Assembly: GCA_027622905.1 (NCBI GenBank)
Contig: JAQBVV010000003.1
Location: forward strand, 1 to 60,516
Direction of reading: 5' to 3'
Origin: Acidobacteriota bacterium
GTDB taxonomy: Bacteria; Acidobacteriota; Vicinamibacteria; Vicinamibacterales; UBA2999
DNA: 60,516 nt
The notes below the pieces were generated by a model. That model saw only the letters and a list, made by a program, of their open reading frames with translations, was not told the DNA's origin and searched no databases. Made by a program: the position numbers and the translations under genes. Shown one piece after another: positions 25,543 to 49,100 of the stretch. Positions within the stretch are counted from its first letter, which is position 1; the number at the start of each line of letters is the position of its first letter.

Positions 25543-27057
25543 ATGAAACGGTGGACGCTTGCGCTGGCCGCGCTGCTGGTGCTCGCGGCGGTGTTCGTCG
25601 AGGTCACCATCATTCCTCCCCGCGTCACCGTGCGCTGGCAAGACGACGTGAGCGCGGGTGAACGGGCGGAACTGGAAGGGCGCTACCGGCTCGAGTCGGG
25701 GAGATTCATCGAAGGGACCACCTGGCGGTACGAGCTATTCGATCGTTCGCGTGAGAACGTGCGGGCCATCGTGACCGACCCCGCCGTTGACGACACCGGC
25801 TACATCGATCGACCGACCTTCGAGGCGCCCGGATGGGGGATCGACGTGAGTGTCGACCGTGCTCGCTTCCTGATCGGATCGACGCCCACCCAGCTGATTC
25901 AGCCTCAAAGCGTGCTGCTCTTCGCTATTGGATTGACGCTTCTCTGGGGCGCCGGCATTGCCACGTACGGCGGCAGGCGCGCGCTGGGCGTTGCGGTGCT
26001 GCTCACCGTTGCTGTGGGTGCATATCTGGTCCCGTTGCGCCAGCCGATCCGGATGGGTGATTCAGGAACGTATGTCGATAGTCGGGAACTATTCGAGACG
26101 TACAGCGGTGTACGGCAGATACGGTTCGAGGCTCACCTGTCGCATGCGATCCTGGGTCGTCTCGACCAGGCCTTCGGCAGCACCGACCAGGCCCCTGGGC
26201 AAGCGCTCGATTGGCTGATGCGGGGCGCGACCGCGTGGTTCGTGCTATCCGCCCTGGCGATCGGTGCGATCGAGCGCTGGTCGGCGGTGGTCCTGCGTTA
26301 TCTCGCACTGGCGCTGCTGGCGCCCTCGACGCTTCTCTACTTCGGCTACCGCGAGCTTGGACACCTGTCGCTGAGCATCGCGGCATTTCCGCTCATTCTG
26401 CGGGGGCTGCAGACTGGCGGCAGGCGTCTTGAAGCGGGAAGCGTGCTGAGTGGACTCGGTGCCGCGCTGCATGGTTTCGGCTTGTTGTCCCTGGCGGGTT
26501 CCGGGCTCGCTGCGTGTGCCGTCCGTGCGCGTGCGGCTGACCGCGTTCGAATGATCCTGCGCTTTTCGGTTTGGGGGACAGCCGCCTATCTTGGTTGGGT
26601 AGCGGTGTATCTGATCGTCTTCAATCTTCCCCTTGTCCCTGGGCATTCGGAGGCGATTCCCTGGAGACCTTGGCTGACCGACGAGGTGACGGACCGCATC
26701 AACGTTGCGATCCTGTCGATCACCGGGGGGCGTGACCTGCTCTTCAGCGCGTGGGCGGTCGGGGTGCCTCTGGTGGTCGTCGCGGCGGGCATGTGGCGTG
26801 AGAGGCGGGAGGAGGTGCGTGCAGCACTCTTGTACGCGGTTCCGTCGCTGATCTTTCTGGTGCTCTTTTGGCCGATCCAGGGTCTCGGCATGGAAATGGA
26901 CCTGGTGTTTGCCGCATTCCCGGCTGTCTACGCACTCGCGTGGGTGTGCGCTCACGACGAGAAGCGAACCGCGATTGCGGCGGTGTTGCTGGTCTCAGCT
27001 CACGTGGCGTTCTGGCGCATCGTGCTCGGTATCGACTTCCTCAATTCACGGCTGTGA
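25543..27057 (+). CDS. Polytopic membrane protein (GT-C-like) with N-terminal shared VRW...DPxVxDT domain; start 25507 or 25543
   Basis: Shared domain at about 25624-25812, a MGDSGTY loop and many TM helices. Confidence 0.65.
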   Translation: MKRWTLALAALLVLAAVFVEVTIIPPRVTVRWQDDVSAGERAELEGRYRLESGRFIEGTTWRYELFDRSRENVRAIVTDPAVDDTGYIDRPTFEAPGWGIDVSVDRARFLIGSTPTQLIQPQSVLLFAIGLTLLWGAGIATYGGRRALGVAVLLTVAVGAYLVPLRQPIRMGDSGTYVDSRELFETYSGVRQIRFEAHLSHAILGRLDQAFGSTDQAPGQALDWLMRGATAWFVLSALAIGAIERWSAVVLRYLALALLAPSTLLYFGYRELGHLSLSIAAFPLILRGLQTGGRRLEAGSVLSGLGAALHGFGLLSLAGSGLAACAVRARAADRVRMILRFSVWGTAAYLGWVAVYLIVFNLPLVPGHSEAIPWRPWLTDEVTDRINVAILSITGGRDLLFSAWAVGVPLVVVAAGMWRERREEVRAALLYAVPSLIFLVLFWPIQGLGMEMDLVFAAFPAVYALAWVCAHDEKRTAIAAVLLVSAHVAFWRIVLGIDFLNSRL

Positions 27058-28503
27058 CGGAGCGTGCTTCGGTGATCGGCCGAAGCCGCGCGTGAGCGCA
27101 GCGCGTAACGCCATGCGCGCGGGGTAGTGCCAGAGCGGTGTCCGACGCGGACGCTTCCTGATGGCCGCCACGTGTTCGATCTCCTCCGCCAGTATCGAGG
27201 CAACCGGCCGGTCAAGACCACGCGGTCGGACGAATGTTTCGATGAAGCGCCGGATGCGATCCGCGCTCGCCTCGGGGTTCGCAAGTCCATTGGCTACCTG
27301 CAAGAGATGTTCATGTAGCGTGGCGGCAACTTCGACCGGGCCGCCGTTTCTCGCGAGCAGATAATGGAAGTGCAGCGTCTGCTCCTGGCCGCCCGCGAAC
27401 TCCTGCGTCTGGATCGCATACACAGGTTTACCGAGGATTCCAGCTTCGATCATGGCACTGGTATTGAGTCCTGCGACCGCGGCCGAGTAGTACAGGGCAT
27501 CGTAGAGGGCGGGGTCGGCCTGGACCTTCGCCGGCTCTGGCCAGACAGCTGCGTTCTCGCTGTCGCCGAAGCGAATGTCCGACCATGATTCGGCATTTGC
27601 TGGATGGGGGCGAACGAGCACGCCGCATGCGGCGACCGCTGGATCCTGTGCTCCCCGTACCGCGCTCACCCACTCCCGAGCAAACGCCGCTTCATTGGGT
27701 GCCACGAAGCGGGACGAGCAGAGGTAGAGGAGAAACGGTCGTGAGGGATCGAGGCCAGCTCGCCGACAGAACTCTTCGCGTGAACTGGACGGGCCCATCT
27801 CGAAGAAGTCGTCGAAGCGAGCGGCGCCCGTCACGACGATCCGGTTCTCGGGTACATCGTGATACGTGATGGCTTCGTTCTTCTGCGTCTCGTTCCACGC
27901 GAGCATCCGGTCGGGAGCGATACGTACCAGCCCCCTGTTTGTCAGGTTGTCCCAGCTGAACGGCAAGAACGCCACGGGGAGACCAAGTCGATGCGCGCTT
28001 TTGACGTAGTCCGTCTGGTACGACCCGAAGTCGATCAGCGGCGTCACGAGTACGACGTCAGGGGCATGAGACCGCAGGTACAACTCGTAGTAGCGCTCGC
28101 TCGGGACGAGGTCTTCGGCAGTTTCAAGCGCTCGTTTGATCCACCTTCGGCGACGACGCCAGGGCCCGCCGTCAGCCAGCCGTTCGGGCCATCCCGGTGG
28201 CGCGTAGGCGCGGGCCCGTTCAGCAAGCTTGTTCGCATGTGCATATCCAGGTCCGAGATACCGCAGGTAATCACGAGCCTGGCGCAGAGGCCGGACCAGT
28301 GGCTCCCACTCGTCGGTGCGCCGCACCGGATTGGTGACCACGTCCACGCGTGGATTGTCGCGAAAGTCCCCGAGCTTCAGCGGCTTGTTCCGTTTGTGGG
28401 CGGCGCACACCGTGACGTCGTGCCCGCGATCCGTTAAGGCCTGAATCACCCGGTCGAAGTGGCGCGTCTTTCCGAGGTTATGTGCGAGAAATAGGACTCT
28501 CAT
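27046..28503 (-). CDS. Family A GT-B-like protein (inverted copy)
   Basis: SWDNLTNRG, VRPHP, GLNTSAMIEAG and QEQTLHFHYL are shared with six paralogs. Confidence 0.8.
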   Translation of the reverse strand: MRVLFLAHNLGKTRHFDRVIQALTDRGHDVTVCAAHKRNKPLKLGDFRDNPRVDVVTNPVRRTDEWEPLVRPLRQARDYLRYLGPGYAHANKLAERARAYAPPGWPERLADGGPWRRRRRWIKRALETAEDLVPSERYYELYLRSHAPDVVLVTPLIDFGSYQTDYVKSAHRLGLPVAFLPFSWDNLTNRGLVRIAPDRMLAWNETQKNEAITYHDVPENRIVVTGAARFDDFFEMGPSSSREEFCRRAGLDPSRPFLLYLCSSRFVAPNEAAFAREWVSAVRGAQDPAVAACGVLVRPHPANAESWSDIRFGDSENAAVWPEPAKVQADPALYDALYYSAAVAGLNTSAMIEAGILGKPVYAIQTQEFAGGQEQTLHFHYLLARNGGPVEVAATLHEHLLQVANGLANPEASADRIRRFIETFVRPRGLDRPVASILAEEIEHVAAIRKRPRRTPLWHYPARMALRAALTRGFGRSPKHAPSQP

Positions 28504-28879
28504 CGTGGCGTCATGTCCCCCGGTATCGTTTGGTATGCGTGCGATGGGTAATGGATCGCCGTGAGCGTTCGCACGATGGTCAGTTTATTCGATGGCGAAT
28601 GGTGCGAGATGCATGGCGACCTGATGTTGTATCTTGGTCGAAAGGACGCTGGCGGATGACGCGATGACCCAAGTGGTGTGCGCCGTGCCGACCGCGGTGC
28701 GTGTGACCGCAGGGCGCGGTGCCGTGTCCAGCGTGGAACGGGTAACGCGGACAGCGACACGACCATCGTCGTGATGGCTGAGGTAGGCCTTCTGAGATTC
28801 CGATGAAGGGTGCACTGGTGTCGCGACGGCACCCTGGGATCATGAGGGGCATGCCGACAGCGTGATAAACGTCAGGACT

Positions 28880-29713: not shown

Positions 29714-29888
29714 GAGCGCTGACAACGATCGCTGCCGCTGACATGCCGATGTGGCCGAGAGGCACGCGTGGTCATGCGGCGCCGATCGGGTTGGAGGTGT
29801 GCGTCTGCGCCGTCGAGCCGCACCCCGATGCCCCGTGTCAGTCCCCCTCGGGATCCTGGAGGACGTGGGAACGGGCTGGTGGCACGCG

Positions 29889-31751
29889 ATGAGCGGGGGG
29901 ATCGACAGACCACGTCGGACGGTGGTGTCGGCTCTTCGGTGGGCGAGTGGTGCGCTTCTGCTTCTTGCCGTGGGCGTCGGTGTTGCCCGACCGCTGCTGG
30001 TCGTGGACGGGTTAGGGATCATCAACGTGCGGTGGCGCGCGGACCTGCCGATCGATCAGAGATCGGCTCTGGAGCGTCGTTTCGGGCTCGCGGTTCTCGA
30101 GCGTGATCCTCCGACGTGGAGGTACACGATCGCTGATGCCGGGCGCGCGAACCTCGAAGCGCTGGTCATGCACCCGGACGTTGCTGACACGCATTTCGTC
30201 GATCGCCAGGAGTTCCGTCTCAGTGCCGACGCGTCCGTGACTGAACCGCGCTTCGTCAGTCAGCGTTTTCCGGTTGTCGGGCGGTGGGCGGCGGAGCAGG
30301 GGCCTCGAGATCTATTGATACTTGCGCTCGCAGTTGCGATGCTGACCGCAGTGCCCGGCGTGCCGGTGTTCCTGTGGGGTCTACCGATGTCCCTCTGGGT
30401 GTGGTGGCGATCGATGCTCGCCCGCGCGGTTCCGACCCTGACGGCGCGAACGCTGGGACAATTTCGGGTGGCGTTCGGCCTGGCGCTGTTTTGTGTCGTG
30501 CTCGGCGACCCGCCTCCCGCGCTTCCCCTCGATTTGCACACCAGCCTCAGCGTACTCGCTGACTGGCCGCCGGTGCATGCGGTGGCAGCGAGCGAGACGG
30601 CTTGCCGGGTTCTCCACGTCACTACCCTGGTGCTGGCCGGTCTCTTCATCATCGGTTACTGGACGCGGTCGGCGTACGTGGCGCTGGTCATGGGAATATT
30701 CGCCAGTCGGCTGGTGGAGTTGCAGGGTCGCGGCATGCACGACTGGGACCTGGCGATGCCGACGCTCTTCGTGCTCGCCGTGGTGCCCTGGGGCGACGGC
30801 TTCAGCCTCGATGCGCGTCTGGCCCATCGTCCGTCCGGGGAGGTGCCCGCCGGGAGGCTCTACGGACTCGCGATCTGGATTCCGGGATTCATGTTGGGGC
30901 TCGCCCTGGCGGCGGCTGCGTACGCCAAGCTGAGTGAAAGCGGTCTTGCGTGGATTACATCCGGCGCAGTCAAGTACCACTTTCTCGAGGACGCCGCCAA
31001 CGCGCCGTTGACGTGGGGCTTGTGGGTGGCGTCGCATCCGACCGTCGCCGTGCTGATGTCACTCGGCGTCATCGTCGCCGAGGCTTCCTTCATAGGGATC
31101 ATCTTCGTGCGTTCGCCGTGGCTCCGCTTCGCGCTCGGCTGCGTCGGACTCTCCTTGTTCGCTGGGTTCTACCTTTTTCAGGGAGTCATCTGGTGGCCAT
31201 GGCTCATGTTGTTTACGGCACTGCTCCCGTGGCCGTTGCTTGACCGCGGCGCCGGGTCAACGGCGCCCCCTGTAACGACCACGACCCCGCTGCGCGCCTG
31301 GCATGTGGCGTTGCTGGCCGCCCTGGCGGTGCAACAGGCCCTCGTGTCGGTCTCGGCGGTGGAGGTCGAGCCGATCATGTCCAATTTCCCCATGTACTCG
31401 AACACGGTTGACTCTCCCGAGGAGTTCCGCCGGACCAGAAGATTTCTCTTCGAAGTCGGAGGCATCGACGTCACCGCGCGCGTCCATGCCATCCCGAACG
31501 CGCCGGACATTCTGCGGCGAGTCGCAGAGGGTGTCGCGGATGGCGAGGGCATCGCCGCGCAGGGGGCGACGGTCATGACGATGCTGCGCACGATCCGGGG
31601 CGAGTACCAGGCGCGGTACGGTGTCAACCTGGAGGCCGTGACGGTCGCAGCCGAGCAGGTAACGTTTGATTGGCAGCGAGGGCAGTTCAACCCTCCGACC
31701 CGAGTGCTGATTGCGGACGTGCCGTTCCAGGATATCGATCTCGGTTTTTAA
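29889..31751 (+). CDS. HTTM-like membrane protein with N-terminal shared VRW...DPxVxDT domain
   Basis: Shared domain at about 30021-30206. LGQFRVAFG, IGYWTR, FSLDA and AAYAKL...W..G segments resemble HTTM/gamma-carboxylase-like proteins. Confidence 0.6.
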   Translation: MSGGIDRPRRTVVSALRWASGALLLLAVGVGVARPLLVVDGLGIINVRWRADLPIDQRSALERRFGLAVLERDPPTWRYTIADAGRANLEALVMHPDVADTHFVDRQEFRLSADASVTEPRFVSQRFPVVGRWAAEQGPRDLLILALAVAMLTAVPGVPVFLWGLPMSLWVWWRSMLARAVPTLTARTLGQFRVAFGLALFCVVLGDPPPALPLDLHTSLSVLADWPPVHAVAASETACRVLHVTTLVLAGLFIIGYWTRSAYVALVMGIFASRLVELQGRGMHDWDLAMPTLFVLAVVPWGDGFSLDARLAHRPSGEVPAGRLYGLAIWIPGFMLGLALAAAAYAKLSESGLAWITSGAVKYHFLEDAANAPLTWGLWVASHPTVAVLMSLGVIVAEASFIGIIFVRSPWLRFALGCVGLSLFAGFYLFQGVIWWPWLMLFTALLPWPLLDRGAGSTAPPVTTTTPLRAWHVALLAALAVQQALVSVSAVEVEPIMSNFPMYSNTVDSPEEFRRTRRFLFEVGGIDVTARVHAIPNAPDILRRVAEGVADGEGIAAQGATVMTMLRTIRGEYQARYGVNLEAVTVAAEQVTFDWQRGQFNPPTRVLIADVPFQDIDLGF

Positions 31752-32054: not shown

Positions 32055-32084
32055 TTGACCCTCTTCTCTCAAATCTCTTAATAT
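32055..32084 (+). promoter_or_regulatory. Sigma70-type promoter for the large downstream gene run
   Basis: TTGACC, 18-nt spacer, TAATAT in a locally AT-rich patch about 200 nt upstream of ATG 32281. Confidence 0.55.
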
Positions 32085-32280: not shown

Positions 32281-33996
32281 ATGAAAATTCTCTTTTCCGC
32301 GACCCATTTCGGGTTCCTTCGCAACTTTCAGTCAACCATTCGGGAACTCGCCGAGCGGGGACACGAATTGCACCTGCTGGCCGAGCGACGCGATGCCATC
32401 GACGGCCAGAAGATGGCAGATCTGCTGGTTGCTGATCATCCCTCGATCACGCTCGAACTCCTTCCGTCGAGTCGTCATCGCCTCTGGTACGCATTGGCTA
32501 CCGGCGTGCGGGCCTCGCTGGACTACTGGCGGTATCTCGACCCGCGCTGGGATCGGGCGGAAAAGCTCCGCGCCCGCGCTGCCGAGCAGGCGCCGCCTTT
32601 CGCCGTTGCCATGGCCCGCGTGCCGATCATCCGGTCGAGAACGGGGCTGGCAATGCTGGCTCGCGTATTTCGCACGGTCGAGCGCGTGTTGCTCCCCCCC
32701 GGTGAAATCGCGGACGTGTTCAGGCGTATCGACCCGGATGTACTGTTCCTGACTCCGCTCTTGTACTTCCGGTCGCATCAGGTCGACCATGTGCGGTGTG
32801 CGCGGCAACTCGGTATCAAGAGCGTACTGGGGGTCGGGAGCTGGGATCACCTGACGACGAAGGGCCTGATTCACGAGGTGCCCGATCGCGTCCTGGTCTG
32901 GAACGAGTTGCAGAAGCGTGAGGCAATCGACCTTCACGACGTACCTGCCGAGCGAGTCGCAGTCACAGGCGCGCAAGCCTACGATCATTGGTTCGCGACC
33001 GAGCCCAGCCTGGACCGTGTGGCTTTCTGTCGGCAAGTGGGCCTCGACGCTGAGCGGCCGATTCTGTTGTATCTGTGCTCGTCGCCCTTCATCGCTCCAC
33101 ACGAAGTGGGATTCGTTCGGAGCTGGATAGGTGCCGTTCGCTCGAGCGCGGCAACGTCTCTCTCGACCGCGGCACTCCTAGTGAGACCGCATCCGCAAAA
33201 CGCGAAGCAGTGGCGGGGCGTCGACCTGGCGGGCGAATTTGGCAACGTGGCGTTGTGGCCGAACACCGGAGTGAATCCGATCGGCGGTTCGGCCCGGGCC
33301 GACTACTTCGATTCGATCTATCACGCGGAAGCCGTGGTGGGGGTCAATACGAGCGCGATGATCGAAGCTGGCATTATCGGCCGGCCGGTCTACTCGGTGA
33401 AGACAGAAGAGTTTGAGGGCACACAGGAAGGCACGCTCCACTTCCAGCATTTGAAGAACGCTGGGGGAGGTCTCTTGCACCTCGCCGCCGATCTTGGGGA
33501 GCACGTGGAACAGCTCGCGGGGCTCCTGGCGGACGAAGGCGGTGCTCGCGAACGCGCACGACAGTTCATGCAGGCCTTTATCCGTCCGCATGGACTCGAC
33601 GTGCCGGCGACGCCCCTTGTGGTCGCCGAAGTAGAGCATCTGGCGTCGGGCCCGGCCCTCGTACCAAGTGCCGTTTCTACCGGCGCGCGTCTCCTGCGCG
33701 TCGCGCTCATTCCGGCGGCGGTCCTCACGACGGTGCTCACAATGGAGCGCGTGAAACTCCGCTCGATGGTGCTCCACTGGACGCGTCCAGCCCGACTGGC
33801 GATCCGCCGCCTGCTGTCACGGTGCGTCTACGCTGTGCGTTTTCTCAGACGCTTGCCGCAGCTGGTGCTTCGAATCCTGGCCGGAGGAATACGTCGCCTC
33901 GTCATCAAACCATTCAGGTGGGCGGTGCGCCTGGGTAAACTGGGCCTCCACGCGTTTCTCGTCTGGCGCAAGGGGCAGCCGGATCAGGTGCCGTAG
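32281..33996 (+). CDS. Family A GT-B-like protein
   Basis: MKILF..RGH, DYWRYL, SWDHLTTKG, VRPHP, GVNTSAMIEAG, QEGTLHF, and an Arg/Leu amphipathic tail. Confidence 0.82.
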   Translation: MKILFSATHFGFLRNFQSTIRELAERGHELHLLAERRDAIDGQKMADLLVADHPSITLELLPSSRHRLWYALATGVRASLDYWRYLDPRWDRAEKLRARAAEQAPPFAVAMARVPIIRSRTGLAMLARVFRTVERVLLPPGEIADVFRRIDPDVLFLTPLLYFRSHQVDHVRCARQLGIKSVLGVGSWDHLTTKGLIHEVPDRVLVWNELQKREAIDLHDVPAERVAVTGAQAYDHWFATEPSLDRVAFCRQVGLDAERPILLYLCSSPFIAPHEVGFVRSWIGAVRSSAATSLSTAALLVRPHPQNAKQWRGVDLAGEFGNVALWPNTGVNPIGGSARADYFDSIYHAEAVVGVNTSAMIEAGIIGRPVYSVKTEEFEGTQEGTLHFQHLKNAGGGLLHLAADLGEHVEQLAGLLADEGGARERARQFMQAFIRPHGLDVPATPLVVAEVEHLASGPALVPSAVSTGARLLRVALIPAAVLTTVLTMERVKLRSMVLHWTRPARLAIRRLLSRCVYAVRFLRRLPQLVLRILAGGIRRLVIKPFRWAVRLGKLGLHAFLVWRKGQPDQVP

Positions 33997-36881: not shown

Positions 36882-36885
36882 CCAC
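36870..36885 (+). repeat. 16-bp direct repeat CAGGCGCCGTGACCAC, second copy at 45350-45365
   Basis: Identical sequence spanning the stop/start junction after two family A genes. Confidence 0.7.
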
Positions 36886-39877: not shown

Positions 39878-40684
39878 ATGAGAGCGATTGTGCTGACCAG
39901 TACGTTCCGCCGGCATGTGTTCGTCGCGAACACCGTCGCCGCCGGTTGCGATCTGATGGGTGTGTGGCAGGAGGAGAAGACGTTTCGCCCCGAGCGGTAC
40001 GCGCACGATGCCGCCGACGAGAAGGCCATTCAGCGTCATTTCGCGGAGCGGGACGCGTCTGAAGCTCGCTACTTCTCGGCGGATTCCGCCCTGCAGCTCG
40101 ATCAAGGCGCCGTGCAGCGAACGGTTGCGGCCGGAGCCTGCAACGAGCCCGCTGAGGTGACGCTCATGGAGGCGGCCAGGCCTGACGTTGTCCTGGTCTT
40201 CGGCACGGGGATCCTTCGCGAACCTCTGTTGTCCGCATTTGAAGGTCGGATTCTCAATATTCACCTGGGACTCTCACCGTACTACCGTGGAGCCGGGACG
40301 AATTTCTGGCCGTTAGTGAACCGCCAACCAGAGTATGTCGGGGCCACGATTCACTATCTGGACGCCGGAATCGACACGGGGCCAATCCTGTCGCATGCGC
40401 GCCCGCTCATCGAACATGGCGACGGCCCGCACGACCTTGGCAACAAGACCATCGTCGCGGCGGCGGCGGGACTGCTGCGAGCCGCCGCGGCCCACGTGTC
40501 TGGATCCGCCAGGGCGGTGCCACAATGGAGCGGCGGCCGGCTTTATCAACGGAAGGACTTCAGCGCCGATGCCGTTCGGGCGATGTACAGAAACTTTGAC
40601 ACGTCAATGATCGCCGAGTATCTATCGGCGCGCGACTCTCGTGACGCCGCACTGAGATTGATCGCGCCAGGGAGCGTCGCGTGA
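39878..40684 (+). CDS. Formyltransferase (formyl_trans_N), probable sugar N-formyltransferase
   Basis: ILNIHLGLSPYYRG and GATIHYLDAGIDTGPIL. Confidence 0.85.
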   Translation: MRAIVLTSTFRRHVFVANTVAAGCDLMGVWQEEKTFRPERYAHDAADEKAIQRHFAERDASEARYFSADSALQLDQGAVQRTVAAGACNEPAEVTLMEAARPDVVLVFGTGILREPLLSAFEGRILNIHLGLSPYYRGAGTNFWPLVNRQPEYVGATIHYLDAGIDTGPILSHARPLIEHGDGPHDLGNKTIVAAAAGLLRAAAAHVSGSARAVPQWSGGRLYQRKDFSADAVRAMYRNFDTSMIAEYLSARDSRDAALRLIAPGSVA

Positions 40685-41664
40685 GCGCCCACGGCTGCAC
40701 GATTGTGTTTTATCACTACGTCCGGGACGTCGAACGCACGCCTTTTCCAGGGATCAAAGCGCTGTCGGTGGCCGACTTCACCAGACAACTGGACTGGCTG
40801 CAGGCACGATTCGAGATCATCGATGGCCCCACGTTCGAACGGGCGGTCACGGCGCGAGTTGGTTTCGACCGGCCCACGGCACTCCTGACGTTCGATGACG
40901 GGTTCGTCGATCACTACGCACATTGCTTCCCGATTTTGCGCTCTCGCGGGCTGGGTGGCATCTTCTTTCTTGCCGGTGCAACGCTCGGCGCGCGGCCAGT
41001 GTTGCTGAACGTGCACAAGACCCACTTTCTTCTGAGTCAACTCGGAGCCGGGCGGTTTGTGCGGGAAGTCTCCGCGGCGCTCGAGCGAGAAGGGGTACAG
41101 CTGAACGGAGCGGGGGGCAGCGAACGCGAAGGCGTCTACCGCTACGACGAGGCGCCGGACGTCGCGATCAAGCGGGTGCTGAACTATGAAACTCCGTACG
41201 CCCTCGCTGACGGTGTATTGTCGACGTTGTTCAGTCGTCACGTTGGCGAGAGCGACGCATTCGCGCGGGAGTTGTACCTGTCAGCCGATCAGGTCCGTGA
41301 GATGGCACGGGACGGTATGACATTCGGCTTTCATACGGAGACCCACCCGGTGCTGTCGCGCCTCGATCGCGAAGGACAGCACGCGGAGCTCCGCAGCGGC
41401 CCGGCGACTGTGCGCGAGCTGACGGGGCAGCACGCGGTGTCGTTCTGTTATCCGTACGGGCTCTCCCACACGTACAACGCAGACACGCTGAGCGTGCTTG
41501 AGGAGTGCGGCTATAGCATGGCGTTCAACACGGTACGGCGCGAGGTCACCGTCGATCGAGAGTCACGCTACGAGCTGCCGCGATTCGATACCCGCGACCT
41601 GCCGATCGTTGAGGGCTCTGTGCGCTCGAAGGCTGCGCAGGGTTCCGTGGATGGTGTCCGATGA
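40681..41664 (+). CDS. Polysaccharide deacetylase (CE4/NodB-like)
   Basis: YHYV, LTFDDG, FHTETHP, FCYPYG and LPRFD. Confidence 0.88.
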   Translation: MSAHGCTIVFYHYVRDVERTPFPGIKALSVADFTRQLDWLQARFEIIDGPTFERAVTARVGFDRPTALLTFDDGFVDHYAHCFPILRSRGLGGIFFLAGATLGARPVLLNVHKTHFLLSQLGAGRFVREVSAALEREGVQLNGAGGSEREGVYRYDEAPDVAIKRVLNYETPYALADGVLSTLFSRHVGESDAFARELYLSADQVREMARDGMTFGFHTETHPVLSRLDREGQHAELRSGPATVRELTGQHAVSFCYPYGLSHTYNADTLSVLEECGYSMAFNTVRREVTVDRESRYELPRFDTRDLPIVEGSVRSKAAQGSVDGVR

Positions 41665-41748
41665 CGTGTGAACAGGTTTCGGTGGCGCGGACACACCTTC
41701 TGCACCTGTTGAGCCTATTGAACCCGAAGGTTCGGAATTCCAAGAATC

Positions 41749-42903
41749 ATGCGTAAAGTCTGTGTCGTCATCGGATCTCGTGCCAACTACGGCAGCATCA
41801 AATCAGTCATGCGTGCGGTACAGGCCCACCCCGGCCTCCAGCTTCAGATCATTGTTGCCGCCTCGGCACTGCTCGATCGTTTCGGATCGGTTGTCGACGT
41901 GATCGAGCAGGATGGCTTCACGCCGGATGCCCGCGTCAACATGATTGTGGAAGGCGAGACTCCGGTGACGATGGCCAAGTCCACCGGCCTTGGCCTGCTC
42001 GAATTGCCCACGCTGTTCGAGTTGTTTCGGCCGGACGTCGTTGTCACGGTCGGCGACCGATTCGAGACAATGGCTACTGCCATCGCAAGCGCGTACATGA
42101 ATATCCCGCTGGCCCACACGATGGGCGGCGAGGTGACTGGCACGATCGACGAAAGCATCAGGCACGCCATCACCAAAATGGCGCATATTCATTTCCCGGC
42201 GAATCAGGGGGCGGCCGACCGCATCATCCGTCTCGGGGAGGCCGCTGACGCCGTCCATGTCGTCGGCTGCCCGCGTATCGATCTGGTGTCAGAGATCATC
42301 AACGGCGAGGGTTCCGATACCGACACCGAGTGGCTCGATCGAGAGGGTGTCGGTGGACATATTTCGACGGAGAAGCCGTTCCTGCTCGTGAGTCAGCACC
42401 CGATCACCACCGAGTACGGTCAGGGGGAGGCTCAGATCTGGGAAACGCTGATGGCGCTGCATGAGTTACGGATGCCGACGGTGATGCTGTGGCCGAATAT
42501 TGACGCGGGCTCGGAAGACGTGTCTCGTGGCATGCGGAAGTTCCGGGAGGACTACAGCCCAGAGTACATGCGGTTCTACAAGAACTTCCCGGTCGAGACG
42601 TACTTGCGTCTGATGAAGGGCGCCGCCTGTCTGGTCGGAAACTCCAGCGCGTCGATTCGGGAAGGCGCGTTTCTCGGAAGTCCAGCTGTGAACATCGGCA
42701 GCCGGCAGGATGGGCGCGAGCGTGGTTCGAACGTGGCGGACGTCGATCATGAACGCGCCGCGATCGTAGGCGCCGTCCGGCGCCAGATCGAGCGGGGACG
42801 GTATTCTCCCGAACACATCTACGGCGATGGACGGGCTGGTGCGCGCATAGCCGACATCCTGTCGACGACCTCGTTACACGTGCAGAAGCGGATCCAGTAC
42901 TGA
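41749..42903 (+). CDS. neuC: UDP/GDP-N-acetylhexosamine 2-epimerase (hydrolysing), copy 1
   Basis: GSRANY, GDRFE, GGEVTGTIDESIRHAITK, PNIDAG, GNSS and NIGSRQ. Confidence 0.88.
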   Translation: MRKVCVVIGSRANYGSIKSVMRAVQAHPGLQLQIIVAASALLDRFGSVVDVIEQDGFTPDARVNMIVEGETPVTMAKSTGLGLLELPTLFELFRPDVVVTVGDRFETMATAIASAYMNIPLAHTMGGEVTGTIDESIRHAITKMAHIHFPANQGAADRIIRLGEAADAVHVVGCPRIDLVSEIINGEGSDTDTEWLDREGVGGHISTEKPFLLVSQHPITTEYGQGEAQIWETLMALHELRMPTVMLWPNIDAGSEDVSRGMRKFREDYSPEYMRFYKNFPVETYLRLMKGAACLVGNSSASIREGAFLGSPAVNIGSRQDGRERGSNVADVDHERAAIVGAVRRQIERGRYSPEHIYGDGRAGARIADILSTTSLHVQKRIQY

Positions 42904-43610
42904 CGGTTCTGGGGGTGATCCCGGCGCGCGGAGGCTCGAAGGCCATTCCACGCAAGAATCTGGCTTTGCTCGGCGGCCGGCCGCTCATCGCCTATACCGT
43001 CGACGCGGCGCGCGCGAGCACGGTCCTCGCACGGGTGGTGGTGAGCACTGACGATCAGGACATCGCGGCCGCGGCGAAGGAGCTCGGTGCTGACGTGCCG
43101 TTCCTCCGGCCATCGCATCTCGCGGGCGATGAAACACCGATGCTCGACGTCCTCCTTGACCTCGTCGATGCCCTCGAGCAGCGCGAGGCGTATCGAGCCG
43201 ACATCCTCGTCTTGCTGCAGCCGACATCTCCCTTCCGCCGGGCGGAGCAGATCGACGCCGCGGTCGATCTGCTCACGAGGTCCGGCGCTGATTCGGTTGT
43301 GACGGTGGTGCCTGTACCCCATCAGTTCTCACCAGAGTCACTGATGCAACTGCACGACAACCGCTTGCTGCCCTATGTGTCAGGGCCCGCGCAATTGCGG
43401 CGGCAGGACAAGCCCCGTCTCTTTGCGCGTAACGGGCCGGCCATCGTGGCGGTTCGGACACAGGTGCTCACCGAGCAGAGAACTCTTTACGGTGTCGATA
43501 CGCGAGGACTGGTCATGACCCGCGAGGAGTCCCTGGATATCGATGACGTCTTCGACCTCGAGCTTGCTGAGCTGATGCTCAACGCGCGCAGTGGCGGGAC
43601 AGCAACGTGA
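42900..43610 (+). CDS. neuA: Acylneuraminate cytidylyltransferase (CMP-NulO synthetase), copy 1; start CTG 42900 or GTG 42915
   Basis: IPARGGSKAIPRKN, STDD, LLQPTSPFR, RRQD, NG and DIDD. Confidence 0.9.
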   Translation: MTVLGVIPARGGSKAIPRKNLALLGGRPLIAYTVDAARASTVLARVVVSTDDQDIAAAAKELGADVPFLRPSHLAGDETPMLDVLLDLVDALEQREAYRADILVLLQPTSPFRRAEQIDAAVDLLTRSGADSVVTVVPVPHQFSPESLMQLHDNRLLPYVSGPAQLRRQDKPRLFARNGPAIVAVRTQVLTEQRTLYGVDTRGLVMTREESLDIDDVFDLELAELMLNARSGGTAT

Positions 43611-45361
43611 AGGTTCTGTTTTGCGCCGCGCACTTCGGATACATGCGCAACTTCGAGTCGGCGATCGCCGCGCTCGCGCTGCGGGGGCATCACGTGCACC
43701 TGGTGGCCGACGAGGCAGACTCGATCGGCGGTAGCCCGCTGGTGGAGCGTCTGGCGGCCGAGCATGCGACGGTCACGTATGGATTCGGGCCGTCGCTCGA
43801 TGCCGAGCCCTGGTTTCGCCTGGCTCGCAAGCTGCGCAGCGCCTCAGACTATGTGCGTTTTCATGAGGGGGCCTTCACCACCTTTTACAAGACGCGCCTG
43901 ACGCTCCGCGAACGCATTCCCCGAAGCGTCCTCTGGCTCATGGATGCTGGCTGCGGAAGGATCGGAGTTGCACGCCGTGCCATCGCCGCCGCACTGCGCC
44001 TCGCGGAAGCCGTGATGCCGGTCAGTTCCGCCAGTCGTGCGTTCATCGAGGCCGAGGATCCGGATGTCGTGCTCATGGCCTCGGTGACGGCCTGGCGCGT
44101 GCCTCAGATTGACCACTTCAGAGCGGCCCGGGCGATCGGGCGTCGTACCGCCGTGTGTGTGTACAGCTGGGATCAGCTCTCCAGTAAAGCGCTGCTGCGG
44201 AACGTGCCCGATCGGGTCATTCTGTGGAACGAGACACAGCGTCGGGAGGCAATGGAGTGGCATGGAGTGCCGGCCGACAGGATCGTCGTGACGGGTGCGC
44301 AGTGCTACGACCGCTGGTTTGGGCGTCAGCCATCGAGGAATCGTGATGACTTTTGTCGGGCCGTCGGCCTGTCCTCGGCCCATCCGATACTCCTGTATAT
44401 CTGCTCGGTCCTGACGCCGAACCCGTACGAGTCCAAGTTCATTCTGCGTTGGCTGGAAGAGATCAGGGGGAGCGCGGATCCTGGATTGCGTGACGCATCG
44501 ATTCTTGTTCGACCGCATCCGGAACGCATGGACGAATGGAAGGATGTCTCGCTCGAACGATTTGGAAACGTAGCGCTGTTTGGACGCAATCCCGTCAGTC
44601 CGGATGCGCAGGCCGACTATTTCGATTCGCTTTATCACAGTCATGCCGTGGTTGGTCTGGTCACGAGCGGATTTCTCGAGGCGGCGGTCGTCGGTCGTCC
44701 CGTGTACTCGCTGCTGCTGCCTGAGATGCAGATGTACCAGGAAGGGATGCAGCACTTCCGCTATCTCATAGACGTTGAAGGCGGATTACTGAAGGTGGCC
44801 CGCGAGTTTCCCGACCACCTGTCGGCGCTCGCGACGGCCCTGCGGCAACCCGATGAGCGCGACGAACAGAATCGCAGGTTCGTGCGCGCCTTCGTCAGAC
44901 CCAATGGCCTCGACGTACCGGCGACACCTGGCTTTGTCGCCGCAGTGGAGCAACTCGCAGAAGCCGCGCCTCTCCCACCGGAGGCGCCACCAGCGTGGTG
45001 CACGGTGGTCCAGCCGCTCGCGCTGTGGGTGGCGCAGTCGTCCGAGACCGGATGGTTGCGCCCGCTGTTCCGCGACACGCCGGAGATGAACAACGACCGA
45101 GGGAGATCCAGGAAGATTGCTCGGAAGCAGGCCGCCGCCGCGGCCCGGACCCAGCGTGTTGCAGAGAAGCAGCGAGTGCTCGATGCGCGTCGCAGAGAAC
45201 GCCGGCGCGCGCATTGGGCTGAGACCAGACGGAAACAGCTTGCGCGAGTGGCCGCGGGCGCAAAGGGGATCGTGCGGTCGAGCGGTTCTGGTGCTGCGTG
45301 GCGCAAGCAACTGGCACGGTTCAAGGGACGGGTCAAGACGATGATCGGTCAGGCGCCGTGA
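43607..45361 (+). CDS. Family A GT-B-like protein with basic helical tail
   Basis: SWDQLSSKA, VRPHP, GLVTSGFLEAA and QEGMQHF. Confidence 0.8.
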   Translation: MKVLFCAAHFGYMRNFESAIAALALRGHHVHLVADEADSIGGSPLVERLAAEHATVTYGFGPSLDAEPWFRLARKLRSASDYVRFHEGAFTTFYKTRLTLRERIPRSVLWLMDAGCGRIGVARRAIAAALRLAEAVMPVSSASRAFIEAEDPDVVLMASVTAWRVPQIDHFRAARAIGRRTAVCVYSWDQLSSKALLRNVPDRVILWNETQRREAMEWHGVPADRIVVTGAQCYDRWFGRQPSRNRDDFCRAVGLSSAHPILLYICSVLTPNPYESKFILRWLEEIRGSADPGLRDASILVRPHPERMDEWKDVSLERFGNVALFGRNPVSPDAQADYFDSLYHSHAVVGLVTSGFLEAAVVGRPVYSLLLPEMQMYQEGMQHFRYLIDVEGGLLKVAREFPDHLSALATALRQPDERDEQNRRFVRAFVRPNGLDVPATPGFVAAVEQLAEAAPLPPEAPPAWCTVVQPLALWVAQSSETGWLRPLFRDTPEMNNDRGRSRKIARKQAAAAARTQRVAEKQRVLDARRRERRRAHWAETRRKQLARVAAGAKGIVRSSGSGAAWRKQLARFKGRVKTMIGQAP

Positions 45362-46419
45362 CCACGACGATGCGCCAGGTGGCGATCGGGGTGGCGTTGC
45401 ACAATCGTGTCGCGTACCTCCCCGAGGCGCTCGACTCGCTGCTGGCCCAGTCTTTCGAGGACTTCGATCTGATCCTCGTCGACGATGGATCGACCGACGG
45501 CACCGAGGGGGTGGCGCGTGCGTATGAGCGACGTGATGCGCGGGTGCGCTATCTCAGGTTCGCCGAGCGCCGCGGGATGGTTGTTGCCTGGCGAACAGCG
45601 TTTGACGAGGCCGCTGCGTCAGGAGCGACGTACTTTGCCTGGGGCAGCGACCATGATCGGTGGCATCCGGAGTGGCTGACCAGGCTGGTCTCCGCGCTTG
45701 CGGGTCACCCCGAGATCGTGCTGGCCTATCCCCTGACCCAGCGAATCGATCCGGACGGTGCGCCATTGGCAAAGCCCGCACGCCAGTTCGAGACAGCAGG
45801 CATAGTGGACAGGCGAGTGCGCTGGAGGCGTCTGAGTCGCAGCGACTCACTGGCGGCCGGTGACGCCGTGTACGGGCTCATGCGCGCGGAGGCAGTACGC
45901 CGCGCCGGTGTGTTTCGTGGGGTACTGTCGCCCGATCGCCTCCTGATCGCGGAACTCTCGTTGCAGGGGCAGATTCGCCAGGTGCCCGAGGTTCTCTGGT
46001 GTCGTCGCCAGTTCGCGGAGGGAAGTGTCGGACGTCAGCGAGACTCGCTCTTCGCGCCGGGCGCACCGAGGCCGTCTGCCCGTACCCCCGCCTGGTACCT
46101 GCACGCGCGCTCACTCTGGACGACCTACGCGTATCCCGGGGGCTCCTCGCTTCAGCTCTCACGTGGTGAGGTTGCCGGTATGGTGCTCGAATATTCGGTC
46201 GCCTACGCATGGCGGCACTACGGCAAGTCGAGCGCGCAGCGCGGCCTGTTATCGGTGTTCGGATGGCCGAGGTGGGTGTACAAGCGGGTGAAGCACGCAG
46301 CGTTGCTCGCCCTCTATACTGTGCTGATCACTTTACGAAAGGCAGGCGCCACGCCCTGTGCCGAGCGCCTGTGCGCCAGGCTCACGGGACGAGAGCGCCC
46401 GTGGCGAAGATCCGCATGA
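45358..46419 (+). CDS. GT2 family glycosyltransferase
   Basis: SLLAQSFEDF, VDDGSTDGT and WGSDHD (DxD). GTGA overlap. Confidence 0.85.
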   Translation: MTTTMRQVAIGVALHNRVAYLPEALDSLLAQSFEDFDLILVDDGSTDGTEGVARAYERRDARVRYLRFAERRGMVVAWRTAFDEAAASGATYFAWGSDHDRWHPEWLTRLVSALAGHPEIVLAYPLTQRIDPDGAPLAKPARQFETAGIVDRRVRWRRLSRSDSLAAGDAVYGLMRAEAVRRAGVFRGVLSPDRLLIAELSLQGQIRQVPEVLWCRRQFAEGSVGRQRDSLFAPGAPRPSARTPAWYLHARSLWTTYAYPGGSSLQLSRGEVAGMVLEYSVAYAWRHYGKSSAQRGLLSVFGWPRWVYKRVKHAALLALYTVLITLRKAGATPCAERLCARLTGRERPWRRSA

Positions 46420-49100
46420 AGATTCTGTTTCTCGCTCGTCATTTCTCGTACCTGCGCCTCTTCGAGTCGGCCATTGCCGAACTGGCCGAGCGTGGCCACA
46501 CCATTCACCTGTCGGCCGATCGCGAGGAGGAGCTGGGTGGCGCGGAGCTGGTCGAGCGCCTTGCCGTGCGGTACCCCGCGGTAACTGTTGGATGGACGCC
46601 GGGGCGACAGGCTGGTGCCTGGGCGGACCTCGGACGGAAACTCCGTCTGGGCATCGACTACCTGCGCTTTCTCGATCCTCGGTACGACTCGACTCCTCGC
46701 TTACGAGGACGATCCGAGGAGCGAACGCCGTCCCTGGTGCGGTGGCTGGTGAAGCTGCCGGTGTTACGAGGACCAGCCGGTCGGCGAGTGATTCGCTGGT
46801 GTCTGCGTCAGTTCGAACAGGCCGTGCCCCGGAGTCGCGAACTCACGGCGTACCTTGAGGAGCAAGCGCCAGACGTTGTGCTGATCACGCCGCTGGTCGA
46901 TCTCGGATCACCGCAGCTCGATCACTTTGTGAGCGCCCGGTCGCTCGGTTTGCGGACGGTGCTGTGCGTAGGCAGCTGGGATCACCTGTCCAGCAAGGGC
47001 TTATTGCGGGCGGCCCCGAATCTCGTGACAGTGTGGAACGAGACGCAGAAGAAGGAAGCGATCGAATTCCATCGCGTTCCGGCCGAGCGAGTGGTCGTGA
47101 CGGGCGCGCAGTGCTACGACCAGTGGTTCGGGCGTCAGCCATCACGCTCGCGTGATGAATTTTGCGAACGCGCGGGACTCGACCCGGGGCGTCCCTTCGT
47201 GCTCTACGTGTGCTCGTCGCTGTTCAAGAACACCGCCAACGAGGCGCGATTCGCGGAGAGCTGGATTCAGCAGGTCCGCGGCAGCGCCGACCCAGCGCTT
47301 CGTGAGGCCGGTCTGTTGATCCGGCCGCACCCTCGGCGCCTTGACGAGTGGCAGCAGGTTGACCTGACAGGATTCAGGAACGTCACGTTGTTCGGCAGTC
47401 ACCCCGTCGACCCTGGCACCAAGGACGACTATTTCGACTCGCTGTACTACGCGTCCGCTGTGGTTGGACTCAACACGAGCGCGTTCCTGGAAGCGGGGGT
47501 TGCCGGGAAGCCAGTGCTTTCGATACTGGTACCGGAAATTTCCGAAGACAACCAGGAAGGGACCATTCACTTTCACTATCTGCTCGGGGTTGGCGGCGGA
47601 CTGCTGGAGACAGCTCGCAGCCTCGGGGAGCACGTGACCCAGCTTGCGGCGGCGCTGGCTGATCCGGGACCGGGCATCGAGCGGGCGCGGCGTTTTACCG
47701 AGGGGTTCATCCGACCTTACGGCCTGGACGAGCCGGCCACCCCACGGTTCGCACGCGCGATTGAAGATGTGGCCTTGGTCCCGTCACCAACCCGGGTCGG
47801 CGCACCGCCAGCGGCGATCGTGGCCCGAGCGCTGCTCTTGCCGTGGCTTGCCTTCGCACAGCTCAGATACGCGACGCAGCCGCTGCGAAAGGAGTCGAGG
47901 TACAAGTACCGTCGTTTCCGTCGCCACGCGAAGAAGCAGGTGTTCCTGAAGATTCGTCATTTCGCCGTGACTCGGCTGAGGCGGATCGTGGGCGAGGAGC
48001 CGCCGCAGCTTCGTCAGGGGACGGGAGCCATCTTGACGCCCAAGCTCAACAAACATCGTGACCCGGCGAAGAACCTTCGGTTTCCGGGCGTGCCGGAGGT
48101 TGACGAAACCAAGGAACTCGTGACGATGCTGGGACGCCAGGATCGACCGATCATCGTCGGTCCGTGGCTCACCGAGGCCGGCTTCGAACTGTTGTACTGG
48201 ATTCCGTTTCTTGCCTGGGTGAAGTCGTACGCCAGTCTGCATGACGACCAGCTGATCGTGGTGTCGCGGGGCGGTGCTGCGCCCTGGTACCGACACATCA
48301 CCCCCCATTATCACGACATCCTCTCGCTCTACACGGCTGATGAGTTTCGGCTCAGGAATGAAACCCGGGTACATGAGCAGAGGGGGCGCCTGAAGCATTT
48401 TGATATTGGCGATTTCGATCGCGAAGTCATCGAGCGCGTCAAACGAAAACGCGGTCTGGACAAGGTCAAGATCCTGCATCCGTCGCTGATGTACAACCTG
48501 TTCAACGTCTTCTGGCGGCAACAGGCACCGATCACGCTGGTGGAGGCGTTCGGCATTTTTCGGCAACTGCCAAAGCTTCCCCTTGGCGACCTCGCGGCTG
48601 CATTGCCACGTGACTACGTGGCGGTCAAGTTCTACGCAAACTCCGCGCTTCCGGACTCGGCGGCGAACAACGCGTTCATCGCGCAGGTGCTCGCGGATAT
48701 CTCGCAGACCACGGACGTGGTCCTTCTCAATACAGGGCAGCGCTATGACGACCATTCTGACTTCACGATGCCGCGCCGAGATCGGCTGCACTCGGTCGAG
48801 CATCTGATGACCCCGGAGACCAACCTGGAGGTACAGACGCGCATCATCTGCGGTGCGCGTGCCTTTGTTGGCACTTATGGTGGTTTTTCGTATCTGGCGC
48901 CATTCTGCGGCACCAACGCGGTCGCCTTCTTCTCCAATCCCACGGCATTTCGTTTCGACCATCTTGAGGTGTCGAAGCGCGTCTTTTCGAGCCTGAGGAG
49001 CGGCTCGTTCGTGCCGCTGGATGTCAAGGATGTCGATGTGGTCCGTTTGTCGCTGGGCCGAGTCGACAAGGAACAGCAGGCCGGAGTAGGAGTGCCCTAG
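46416..49100 (+). CDS. Fusion of a family A module and a family B module
   Basis: ATG 46416. N-terminal half has SWDHLSSKG, RPHP and QEGTIHFHYL. C-terminal half has GPWLTEAGFELLYWIPF and FVGTYGGFSYLAP. Confidence 0.82.
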   Translation: MKILFLARHFSYLRLFESAIAELAERGHTIHLSADREEELGGAELVERLAVRYPAVTVGWTPGRQAGAWADLGRKLRLGIDYLRFLDPRYDSTPRLRGRSEERTPSLVRWLVKLPVLRGPAGRRVIRWCLRQFEQAVPRSRELTAYLEEQAPDVVLITPLVDLGSPQLDHFVSARSLGLRTVLCVGSWDHLSSKGLLRAAPNLVTVWNETQKKEAIEFHRVPAERVVVTGAQCYDQWFGRQPSRSRDEFCERAGLDPGRPFVLYVCSSLFKNTANEARFAESWIQQVRGSADPALREAGLLIRPHPRRLDEWQQVDLTGFRNVTLFGSHPVDPGTKDDYFDSLYYASAVVGLNTSAFLEAGVAGKPVLSILVPEISEDNQEGTIHFHYLLGVGGGLLETARSLGEHVTQLAAALADPGPGIERARRFTEGFIRPYGLDEPATPRFARAIEDVALVPSPTRVGAPPAAIVARALLLPWLAFAQLRYATQPLRKESRYKYRRFRRHAKKQVFLKIRHFAVTRLRRIVGEEPPQLRQGTGAILTPKLNKHRDPAKNLRFPGVPEVDETKELVTMLGRQDRPIIVGPWLTEAGFELLYWIPFLAWVKSYASLHDDQLIVVSRGGAAPWYRHITPHYHDILSLYTADEFRLRNETRVHEQRGRLKHFDIGDFDREVIERVKRKRGLDKVKILHPSLMYNLFNVFWRQQAPITLVEAFGIFRQLPKLPLGDLAAALPRDYVAVKFYANSALPDSAANNAFIAQVLADISQTTDVVLLNTGQRYDDHSDFTMPRRDRLHSVEHLMTPETNLEVQTRIICGARAFVGTYGGFSYLAPFCGTNAVAFFSNPTAFRFDHLEVSKRVFSSLRSGSFVPLDVKDVDVVRLSLGRVDKEQQAGVGVP

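Follow-up and report, generated by a model that had tools for sequence, protein, structure and literature searches.

To our knowledge, few transferases are known for bacterial nonulosonic acids (NulOs) other than N-acetylneuraminic acid. Family A, described here, is a set of paralogous proteins encoded in one surface-glycan operon of an Acidobacteriota bacterium (Vicinamibacterales); its members are probably glycosyltransferases (GTs) that use cytidine monophosphate (CMP)-activated NulOs and build a polymer exported by the Wzm/Wzt transporter. The window analyzed was a complete 60.5-kb contig (JAQBVV010000003.1, 60,516 nucleotides) of a 3.43-Mb metagenome-assembled genome (MAG; GCA_027622905.1), 97% complete and with about 63% G+C.

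Several described systems lie close to this locus. Bacterial sialyltransferases and polysialyltransferases of the GT-B fold form CAZy families GT38, GT52 and GT80. WbdA and WbbB are multi-domain polymerases of glycans whose export depends on ATP-binding cassette (ABC) transporters. TagF, TarL and TagB (PF04464; structures 3l7i and 8va1) are membrane-associated GT-B enzymes with a cytidine nucleotide as leaving group; in the structure of TarL with cytidine diphosphate (CDP)-ribitol, H433 contacts the alpha-phosphate, and the H433A variant is inactive (PMC10901376, in its accessible part). The closest characterized enzymes to family A are the Tannerella transferases of pseudaminic (Pse) and legionaminic (Leg) acid, Tanf_01245, TFUB4_00887 and BFO_1060 (NF046086), although family A falls outside their family by the curated threshold. 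As given in the accessible part of PMC5420450, the O-glycan lost its terminal Pse or Leg derivative when the BFO_1060-family gene of Tannerella forsythia was knocked out, knock-out with complementation tied the family to the transfer of these derivatives, and a TagB-like domain and an HP motif were noted in the enzymes by the authors.

At the level of the finished polymer, the O-antigen of Legionella pneumophila serogroup 1 is a NulO homopolymer (poly-legionaminic acid) exported by Wzm/Wzt, and its locus holds NeuA-, NeuB- and NeuC-type genes together with an AsnB-like amidotransferase, methyltransferases and radical S-adenosylmethionine (SAM) genes (PMC3766260, accessible text). According to the available portion of a paper from 2020, transfer of Leg to cell surfaces had not been reported for any bacterial enzyme (PMC7439481). 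FlmG, which transfers Pse or Leg to flagellin and is of the GT-B type (bioRxiv 10.1101/2022.03.25.485807, available in part), was considered as a possible relative. No paper on family A or on NulO glycans of Acidobacteria was found, within an incomplete coverage of the literature.

Family A and its relation to known GT-B enzymes

The window encoded six intact family A paralogs and one remnant with an internal deletion, as obtained by open reading frame (ORF) listing, translation, alignment and tblastn. Seven copies, the one at 35776 broken, had been claimed at these positions by the original prediction, which was made from the sequence alone, and all were recovered; its end of the array at 47900 was set too early, as the gene at 46416 continues to 49100 and is fused to an unrelated domain of a second family, family B. 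Pairwise identities ranged from 36 to 52% (tblastn E values of 1e-74 to 1e-134), and chance similarity was therefore excluded. Within the entire assembly, the family was confined to this contig. The copies were as follows, with lengths in amino acids (aa).

27046-28503, minus strand: copy 1, 485 aa, the shortest, without the long basic tail; 27046 is its 3' end; protein modelled with AlphaFold2 (AF2)
32281-33996, plus strand: copy 2, 571 aa from the MKILF start, SWDHL
34008-35756, plus strand: copy 3, 582 aa, with an Arg/Glu-rich, highly charged C-terminal tail
35776-36881, plus strand: remnant, N-terminal part of about 100 codons joined out of frame to the C-terminal third
38131-39771, plus strand: copy 5, 546 aa, SWDNL; start overlaps the stop of the family B gene 36848-38134
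43607-45361, plus strand: copy 6, 584 aa, SWDQL and VTSG; start overlaps the stop of the CMP-NulO synthetase gene 42915-43610
46416-49100, plus strand: copy 7, A-B fusion (A at about residues 1-510, B at about 570-894); start overlaps the stop of the GT2 gene 45298-46419

The N-terminal piece of the remnant (35776-36084) corresponded to residues 1-93 of copy 3 (34008), and its C-terminal piece (36078-36434, onward to 36881, in another frame) to residues 327-444 of the same copy (tblastn), so that about 233 residues were gone, SWD and RPHP among them. Rather than scattered point mutations, the lesion was a clean loss of about 700 bp from the interior, accompanied by a change of frame; starting at a GTG at 35952, the C-terminal piece retains 309 open codons.

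In the six-way alignment of the intact copies, the shared motifs named by the original prediction (SWD.L, GA...D, RPHP, TS..EA...G.PV and QE...HF) were invariant, as were WN..Q..EA and F..F.RP.G. D[YF]F[DE]S, which had been claimed for most copies, was missing from the copy at 27046. Across 47 family A members, 28 columns were invariant, including W184, D185, R298-P299-H300, E353 and H378-F379.

Library scans of the window copies and of the 47 members showed no family A copy above any Pfam or NCBIfam cut-off. Weak N-terminal matches to Glyco_transf_4 were obtained for 24 of the 47 members (best E 1.1e-6), and a profile search of the PDB with six copies gave no sequence relative (best E 0.3, an unrelated oxygenase). 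The sole consistent signal was NF046086, the BFO_1060 family, matched by all six intact copies (E 1e-12 to 1e-4; copy 1 at E 1.1e-12 and 47.8 bits, under the 200-bit cut-off) and by 46 of the 47 members at E<=0.01, none of them above the cut-off. By these comparisons NF046086 is the nearest curated relative of family A. A true NF046086 member (260 bits; L096:1210-2739, minus strand) occurred in a genome of the same phylum (G221), where two distant A-like genes directly adjoin it (neighbors at G221:C6:63100-67213); two branches of the superfamily therefore coexist in one locus. Aligned by hhalign, the family A profile and this member matched over 265 columns spanning both domains (Prob 86.8%, E 4.2e-6), with V-H-P paired with R-P-H-P and NCTSATEAWMFGKPV with NTSA.IEA...G.PV; HP and TSA.EA..GKPV were common to the two. 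Like family A, the Tannerella enzymes are two-domain GT-B-type proteins encoded beside CMP-NulO synthesis genes. Family A differs from them by a helical insert of about 90 residues, by SWD, QE..HF and F[VI]RP.G, and by long charged tails in many copies. On a protein O-glycan, they place a single terminal residue (PMC5420450, accessible part); family A genes, by contrast, stand 2-10 to an array and are accompanied by an ABC exporter.

The C-terminal half of family A is also homologous to TagF-like enzymes. A local hhalign against ten PF04464 ORFs from a sample of 251 genomes of the phylum gave Prob 72% and E 3.4e-5 over residues 202-446; the global alignment reached Prob 15.9%. The RPHP histidine (His300) was paired with the K-F-H-P histidine of one of these ORFs (L086), which phmmer in turn paired with TarL H433 and TagF H584. 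Because it aligns with these phosphate-contacting residues, the HP motif is predicted to line the nucleotide pocket, where the original prediction had placed it in advance. Taken together, the comparisons suggest that family A consists of anciently diverged paralogs of a large unannotated GT-B family, branching off the TagF/BFO_1060 superfamily, whose transferases depend on cytidine nucleotides.

This relationship raises the question of whether family A proteins are themselves TagF-like phosphotransferases, transferring a CDP-activated donor into a phosphodiester-linked, teichoic-acid-like polymer. In favor of it are the homologous C-terminal domain with its conserved K-x-H-P histidine and the folds of TarL and TagF, both close to the family A model (see below). 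PF04464 was borne by 48% of the members of the nearest named ESM Atlas cluster, one JGI record titles a family A relative TagB/SpsB, and Bacillus subtilis SpsB offers a precedent (PMC7439481, available portion). Yet the catalytic W-H-G histidine (TagF H444, TarL H300), which takes the proton from the acceptor, had no counterpart, as W-H is absent from the family and W184-D185 is invariant instead. PF04464 was matched by none of eight window proteins and by a single one of the 47 members (E 0.042), the genome that contains the window held no PF04464 member, and in the phylum sample the 8 genomes out of 251 with this domain did not include any of the 19 that carry A or A-like genes. No gene of a CDP-alditol pathway was seen in the window, and no cytidylyltransferase was present in the operon other than those of the CMP-NulO/3-deoxy-D-manno-octulosonate (Kdo) type. 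We consider a phosphotransferase improbable. Family A departs from TagF and TarL in lying under the Pfam threshold, in having W-D for W-H-G and NTSA..EA for DYSS, and in its expected attack at the anomeric carbon rather than at phosphorus. By eye, W-[HD]-x4-K follows a strand in both family A and TagF-like enzymes, a resemblance rather than a result, and we hypothesize that W-D is equivalent to the W-H of TagF and TarL. Such an apparent change of base from W-H to W-D would bear on how a phosphotransferase scaffold became a glycosyltransferase.

The AF2 model of the 27046 copy, built on a 47-sequence alignment, reached a predicted local distance difference test score (pLDDT) of 90.9 and a predicted template modelling score of 0.91. 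All its listed Foldseek matches were GT-B proteins (E ~1e-10), namely uridine diphosphate (UDP)-GlcNAc 2-epimerases and GT1 and GT4 enzymes. A fold-only VIA wide search covered 48,161 chains, and among the 50 matches listed, GT-B enzymes ranged from Z 21.1 down to 14.7: NeuC (5zlr; Z 21.1, root-mean-square deviation 4.2, 330 residues aligned), the epimerase 4nes (21.0), TarL (8va1; 19.6), the Kdo transferase WaaA (2xci; 19.1), TagF (3l7i; 17.0), Cps3D (8qoy; 16.8), Bcs3 (8a0c; 15.3) and a polysialyltransferase (5wc6; 14.9). The GT-B fold expected by the original prediction is, as modelled, beyond doubt. A kinship in sequence to KpsC/KpsS or to sialyltransferase families, whose HP motif that prediction had cited, did not emerge, as none of these was among the 16 Pfam families matched by the 47 members at E<=1; KpsC and KpsS were not among the 50 fold matches either, an absence that does not exclude kinship. 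In the model, RPHP lies after the second strand of the C-terminal domain (294-298), N-T-S before helix 350-356 with the invariant Glu353, and SWD after strand 177-179 of the N-terminal domain, which also carries the helical insert (residues ~60-146). The Foldseek and VIA rankings did not separate cytidine-dependent from UDP-dependent GT-B enzymes, and the fold ranking does not tell the donor.

Since NeuC and UDP-GlcNAc 2-epimerases were the top folds (Z 20.6-21.1), family A proteins might be NeuC/WecB-like epimerases or hydrolases, or else inactive assembly scaffolds. Epimerase_2 was weakly matched by 3 of the 47 members (best E 0.0032). The sequence-level homology, however, indicates transferases, two bona fide NeuC genes are already present in the locus, and six to ten specialized copies per locus better fit linkage-specific transferases. 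The 28 invariant columns, which include cleft-type motifs, argue against inactive scaffolds. A role other than transfer is thus very improbable.

Association with nonulosonic acid synthesis and with family B

The family A paralogs sit in one long, mostly co-directional surface-glycan operon (Pfam and NCBIfam annotation), whose exporter, donor-supply and GT2 genes were the following.

22318-25470, plus strand: ABC exporter, a Wzt-like ATPase (488 aa) and two tandem ABC-2 permease genes
39878-43610, plus strand: NulO module 1, formyltransferase, polysaccharide deacetylase, NeuC-type hydrolyzing 2-epimerase and CMP-NulO synthetase
45298-46419, plus strand: GT2 glycosyltransferase inside the array, with a homolog in 27 of 73 related loci
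49235-53385, plus strand: NulO module 2, NeuB-type synthase, second NeuC-type epimerase, methyltransferase and second CMP-NulO synthetase

Donor genes thus comprised two NeuC-type epimerases, one NeuB-type synthase and two CMP-NulO synthetases. Module 1 scored 383 bits against TIGR03568, above the cut-off, and three related genomes showed this module in synteny. Use of two differently modified NulOs is suggested by the formyltransferase-deacetylase pair together with the methyltransferases. The gene types of the window are those reported for the Legionella poly-legionaminic-acid locus in the accessible part of PMC3766260, a likeness by gene content; that text names no transferase for legionaminic acid. 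Taken as a whole, the operon is similar to assembly lines of O-antigen or capsule that depend on an ABC transporter.

Family A was large and mostly unannotated. A profile search of 1.84 billion cluster representatives gave 7070 members at E<=1e-3 and 2128 at E<=1e-30, and a word-based search with copy 3 (34008) gave 2791 matches at E<=1e-3 among 7999 candidates scored. Among 120 listed matches, nearly all named ones were "hypothetical protein" and one alone had a precomputed Pfam domain. The nearest named relatives were from Vicinamibacterales/Acidobacteriota MAGs (69-72% identity). Relatives were encoded on 771 stretches in species genomes, and 73 loci were kept. By record titles these were mostly Acidobacteriota (Vicinamibacterales), with other carriers in Chloroflexota, Planctomycetota, Nitrospinota, Actinomycetota, a cyanobacterium and Alphaproteobacteria, at least seven phyla overall. 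One carrier, the cultured alphaproteobacterium Tistlia consotensis USBA 355 (L042), had four A and three B copies within 21 kb and is a possible experimental model.

Carriers of family A also encoded NulO synthesis. A NeuB-family gene was present in 49 of 50 carrier genomes, two of them unpublished (15 further listed genomes stand outside the count); the exception was a 1.9-Mb assembly. By an approximate hand comparison, which assumes that contig numbers follow accession serials, 27 of the 50 had NeuB no more than about 50 kb from the A locus, on a contig of the same number. In the phylum sample, searched with cut-offs of E<=1e-20 for A or A-like genes and E<=1e-40 for NeuB (one NeuB-positive genome being unpublished), 19 of the 251 genomes held A or A-like genes, 8 of them close copies and 11 distant ones; NeuB was found in all 19 carriers vs 51 of the 232 non-carriers, and it shared a contig with the array in 6 of the 8 genomes bearing close copies. 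A minimal locus (G271) read Wzm-NeuB-NeuC-NeuA-methyltransferase-...-AsnB-Wzt-A-like-A-like-GT2, with distant A-likes and no family B found in that genome. Within fetched flanks of up to 10 kb, an ABC-transporter gene occurred in 26 of the 73 loci, and a NulO or ABC-transporter gene in 47. Arrays often fill these flanks, with at least two A copies in 58 of the 73 loci, and up to seven.

Family B is a second paralog family of six members, five free-standing genes and the C-terminal domain of the 46416 gene.

36848-38134, plus strand: family B gene (alignment)
48100-49100, plus strand: family B domain of the A-B fusion, last ~320 residues of the 46416 gene
53198-54505, 54657-55694, 55691-56737 and 56533-57954, plus strand: four tandem family B genes (alignment, tblastn)

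Its invariant motifs were GPW..E.G.E.LYW.PF, SRGG, HP, D.H and F.GT.G..A..AP..G, and no Pfam or NCBIfam match was obtained. The AF2 model (pLDDT 90.8) had a GT-B fold, nearest to GT9 heptosyltransferases (3tov, Z 14.9; 1psw, 13.8; 2h1f, 13.0; TibC, 11.6). Family B occurred in exactly 8 of the 251 genomes, those with close family A, and in none of the 11 with distant A-likes; the close A copies and B therefore form one system.

This co-occurrence bears on which of the two families would transfer the NulO. Family A might use an ordinary nucleoside diphosphate-activated sugar on NulO-containing acceptors, with the GT9-like B, or some other enzyme, adding the NulO. Like A, B is a GT-B protein; it is present in all eight genomes with close A and has its genes clustered around NulO module 2, and the fold of A is most similar to UDP-dependent enzymes. 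The TS..EA..G.PV segment, moreover, is a nucleotide-binding element generic to GT-B enzymes and no mark of CMP donors. Where B is absent, however, distant A-likes still adjoin NeuB/NeuC/NeuA and Wzm/Wzt; it is A, rather than B, that is akin to the BFO_1060 Pse/Leg transferases and retains the TagF-type phosphate-contacting histidine; and the best fold matches of B are heptosyltransferases. A donor of the ordinary kind therefore seems unlikely, and within the A/B system the link to NulO transferases appears to be carried by A.

Proposed mechanism and the evidence weighed

We regard family A as probably composed of CMP-NulO glycosyltransferases that build a Wzm/Wzt-exported polymer. The original prediction of cytidine-nucleotide-donor transferases was supported by homology and gene context; the donor itself we infer. 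Each A copy would take a CMP-activated Neu/Leg-type (neuraminic or legionaminic) NulO, supplied by the two NulO modules of the operon, and transfer the sugar onto a specific acceptor hydroxyl of a lipid-linked glycan at the cytoplasmic membrane face. The C-terminal Rossmann domain would bind CMP through an LY.CSS loop, the RPHP histidine, the N-T-S loop and the Glu that follows; His300 of RPHP would contact and protonate the leaving phosphate, aiding departure of CMP, and Asp185 of SWD, in an N-domain loop facing the cleft, would deprotonate the acceptor hydroxyl. Six A enzymes, six GT9-like B modules and one GT2 acting in series would yield a NulO-rich heteropolymer with several linkage types, exported when finished by the Wzm/Wzt ABC transporter.

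In its way of working, family A would thus most resemble an inverting GT-B sialyltransferase, with which it shares the fold class, the HP motif of the C-terminal domain, a presumed carboxylate base and, putatively, a CMP-NulO donor. It differs in having no detectable sequence relationship to these enzymes, the polysialyltransferase 5wc6 ranking low among its fold matches. Family A also has no D/E-D/E-G, a sialyltransferase motif described along with HP in PMC5420450, at the position aligned with the DEEG of BFO_1060, while HP is invariant. With TagF, TarL and TagB it has in common the membrane association, the GT-B fold, the homologous C-terminal domain with its phosphate-contacting histidine and, presumably, the cytidine nucleotide as leaving group.

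Several observations weigh against a CMP-NulO transferase. NF046086 scores did not exceed 47.8 bits for any window copy vs the 200-bit cut-off, and of 14 control genomes, 5 gave sub-threshold matches to this family at E<=0.01 and 2 still did so at E<=1e-8. In the hhalign, the DEEG of the BFO_1060 member was aligned with T-N-[KR]-G of family A and not with SWD. The N-terminal domain aligned with TagF-like enzymes at Prob 1.3% (local) and 0.1% (global); because this alignment was not significant, the role of the SWD Asp is argued from its position and invariance. The fold ranking was led by UDP-GlcNAc 2-epimerases (Z 21), with a polysialyltransferase at just Z 14.9. A NulO gene was found in just 25 of the 73 loci within the fetched flanks. 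NeuB was common in the phylum sample (70 of 251 genomes), and since related genomes are not independent, the link between family A and NeuB is counted as an association and not as a statistic. Family B, also GT-B and perfectly co-occurring with close A, could itself be the NulO transferase. Finally, Bacillus subtilis SpsB, a TagB-like protein encoded beside Leg genes, was dispensable for Leg transfer (PMC7439481, available portion).

A broader proposal, which we put forward tentatively and hold to be rather doubtful as a whole, is that A and its obligate partner B constitute a new modular polymerase system for NulO-rich heteropolymers, in which A would define a new glycosyltransferase family. 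Free and fused modules (A-A, A-B, A-B-A) could each make one linkage of a complex polymer containing two or three differently modified NulOs. As in the multi-domain polymerases WbdA and WbbB and the capsule polymerases Bcs3 and Cps3D, several GT modules would work one after another on a single lipid-linked chain, which Wzm/Wzt or KpsMT exports; Bcs3 (8a0c) and Cps3D (8qoy), both in the fold list, contain TagF-like modules. Unlike those polymerases, the A/B system combines BFO_1060/TagF-related A with GT9-like B, and it has far more copies, 6-10 A and 4-6 B per locus.

Should family A proteins prove to be NulO transferases, the construction of sialic-acid-like surface polymers by many bacteria of soil and water would be explained. 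If the modular proposal is also true, A would supply the largely missing polymerizing enzymes for legionaminic/neuraminic-type sugars in environmental bacteria, the groups concerned being Acidobacteriota, Chloroflexota, Actinomycetota, Planctomycetota, Cyanobacteria and Alphaproteobacteria. The family would offer glyco-engineers a panel of linkage-specific enzymes, and its old paralog arrays and fusions represent a natural experiment in the evolution of donor and acceptor specificity within one fold.

Age of the paralogs and further features of the operon

The family A paralogs appeared from their phylogeny to be old and specialized. In a quick IQ-TREE phylogeny (LG+G4, Shimodaira-Hasegawa-like approximate likelihood-ratio test (SH-aLRT) only) of 77 A domains from 17 genomes, rooted on eight distant A-likes, each window copy grouped with copies from other genomes in an orthogroup of its own (SH-aLRT 98-100). 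Support was 99 for the copy 1 (27046) orthogroup, made up of Vicinamibacterales/Acidobacteriota copies, 100 for copy 2 (32281), 100 for copy 5 (38131) and 99 for copy 6 (43607). In three other genomes, orthologs of copies 2 and 5 were joined as the first and second domains of one A-A protein. Because each copy has its own orthologs elsewhere, a recent amplification was rejected as the source of the seven copies.

The residue after SWD (N, H or Q) had been suggested to tune specificity. It was fixed in three orthogroups (N in 7/7, H in 6/6, N in 7/7) and mixed in two, so a role in specificity is no more than possible; 25 of the 77 domains had H, and N was the residue of most copies and of the distant outgroup.

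Three genera of the same family followed one operon plan: Wzt-Wzm, A copies, formyltransferase-deacetylase-NeuC-NeuA, A copies, B, NeuB-NeuC-methyltransferase-NeuA, B, B and a short-chain dehydrogenase/reductase (SDR), with about 8-10 A copies in each. Among 267 retrieved relatives, the following architectures were counted.

A alone: 209
A-B: 28
A-A: 25
A-A-A: 2
A-B-A: 1
A-deacetylase: 1
A-GT2: 1

Within the window, four-base start/stop overlaps (GTGA, ATGA) joined NeuA to A (43607-43610), GT2 to A (46416-46419) and B to A (38131-38134), which suggests translational coupling. The A catalytic domain was followed by long Arg/Glu/Ala-rich, probably helical tails in 34008-35756, 43607-45361 and 35952-36881, and similar stretches preceded the B domain at the N-termini of 36848-38134, 53198-54505 and 56533-57954. 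These charged tails could serve in membrane binding, in coiled-coil assembly of the enzymes or in control of chain length.

A third and more distant NeuB/NeuA/methyltransferase set was found on contigs C47 and C48 of the same genome. The three NulO gene sets suggest two or three differently modified NulOs, one possibly N-formylated, and such differences could explain part of the multiplicity of enzymes. In the exporter, two unlike ABC-2 permease genes stood in tandem (23690-24631 and 24628-25470) after a single Wzt-like ATPase with extra N- and C-terminal regions, an arrangement that hints at a heterodimeric permease and a cap-recognizing Wzt domain.

The upstream part of the operon encoded two AsnB-like amidotransferases, SDR enzymes, two radical-SAM proteins and methyltransferases. 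The two AsnB-type genes lay at 4843-10825; in the Legionella legionaminic-acid locus, an AsnB-like enzyme makes the acetamidino group. The radical-SAM genes (12937-15844, minus strand), a radical-SAM and B12-binding radical-SAM pair, were on the opposite strand. Two large polytopic membrane proteins without family assignment (25507-27057 and 29751-31751) shared an N-terminal domain of about 110 residues (31% identity, E 7e-12), and a copy of the former was found on contig C99 (51% identity).

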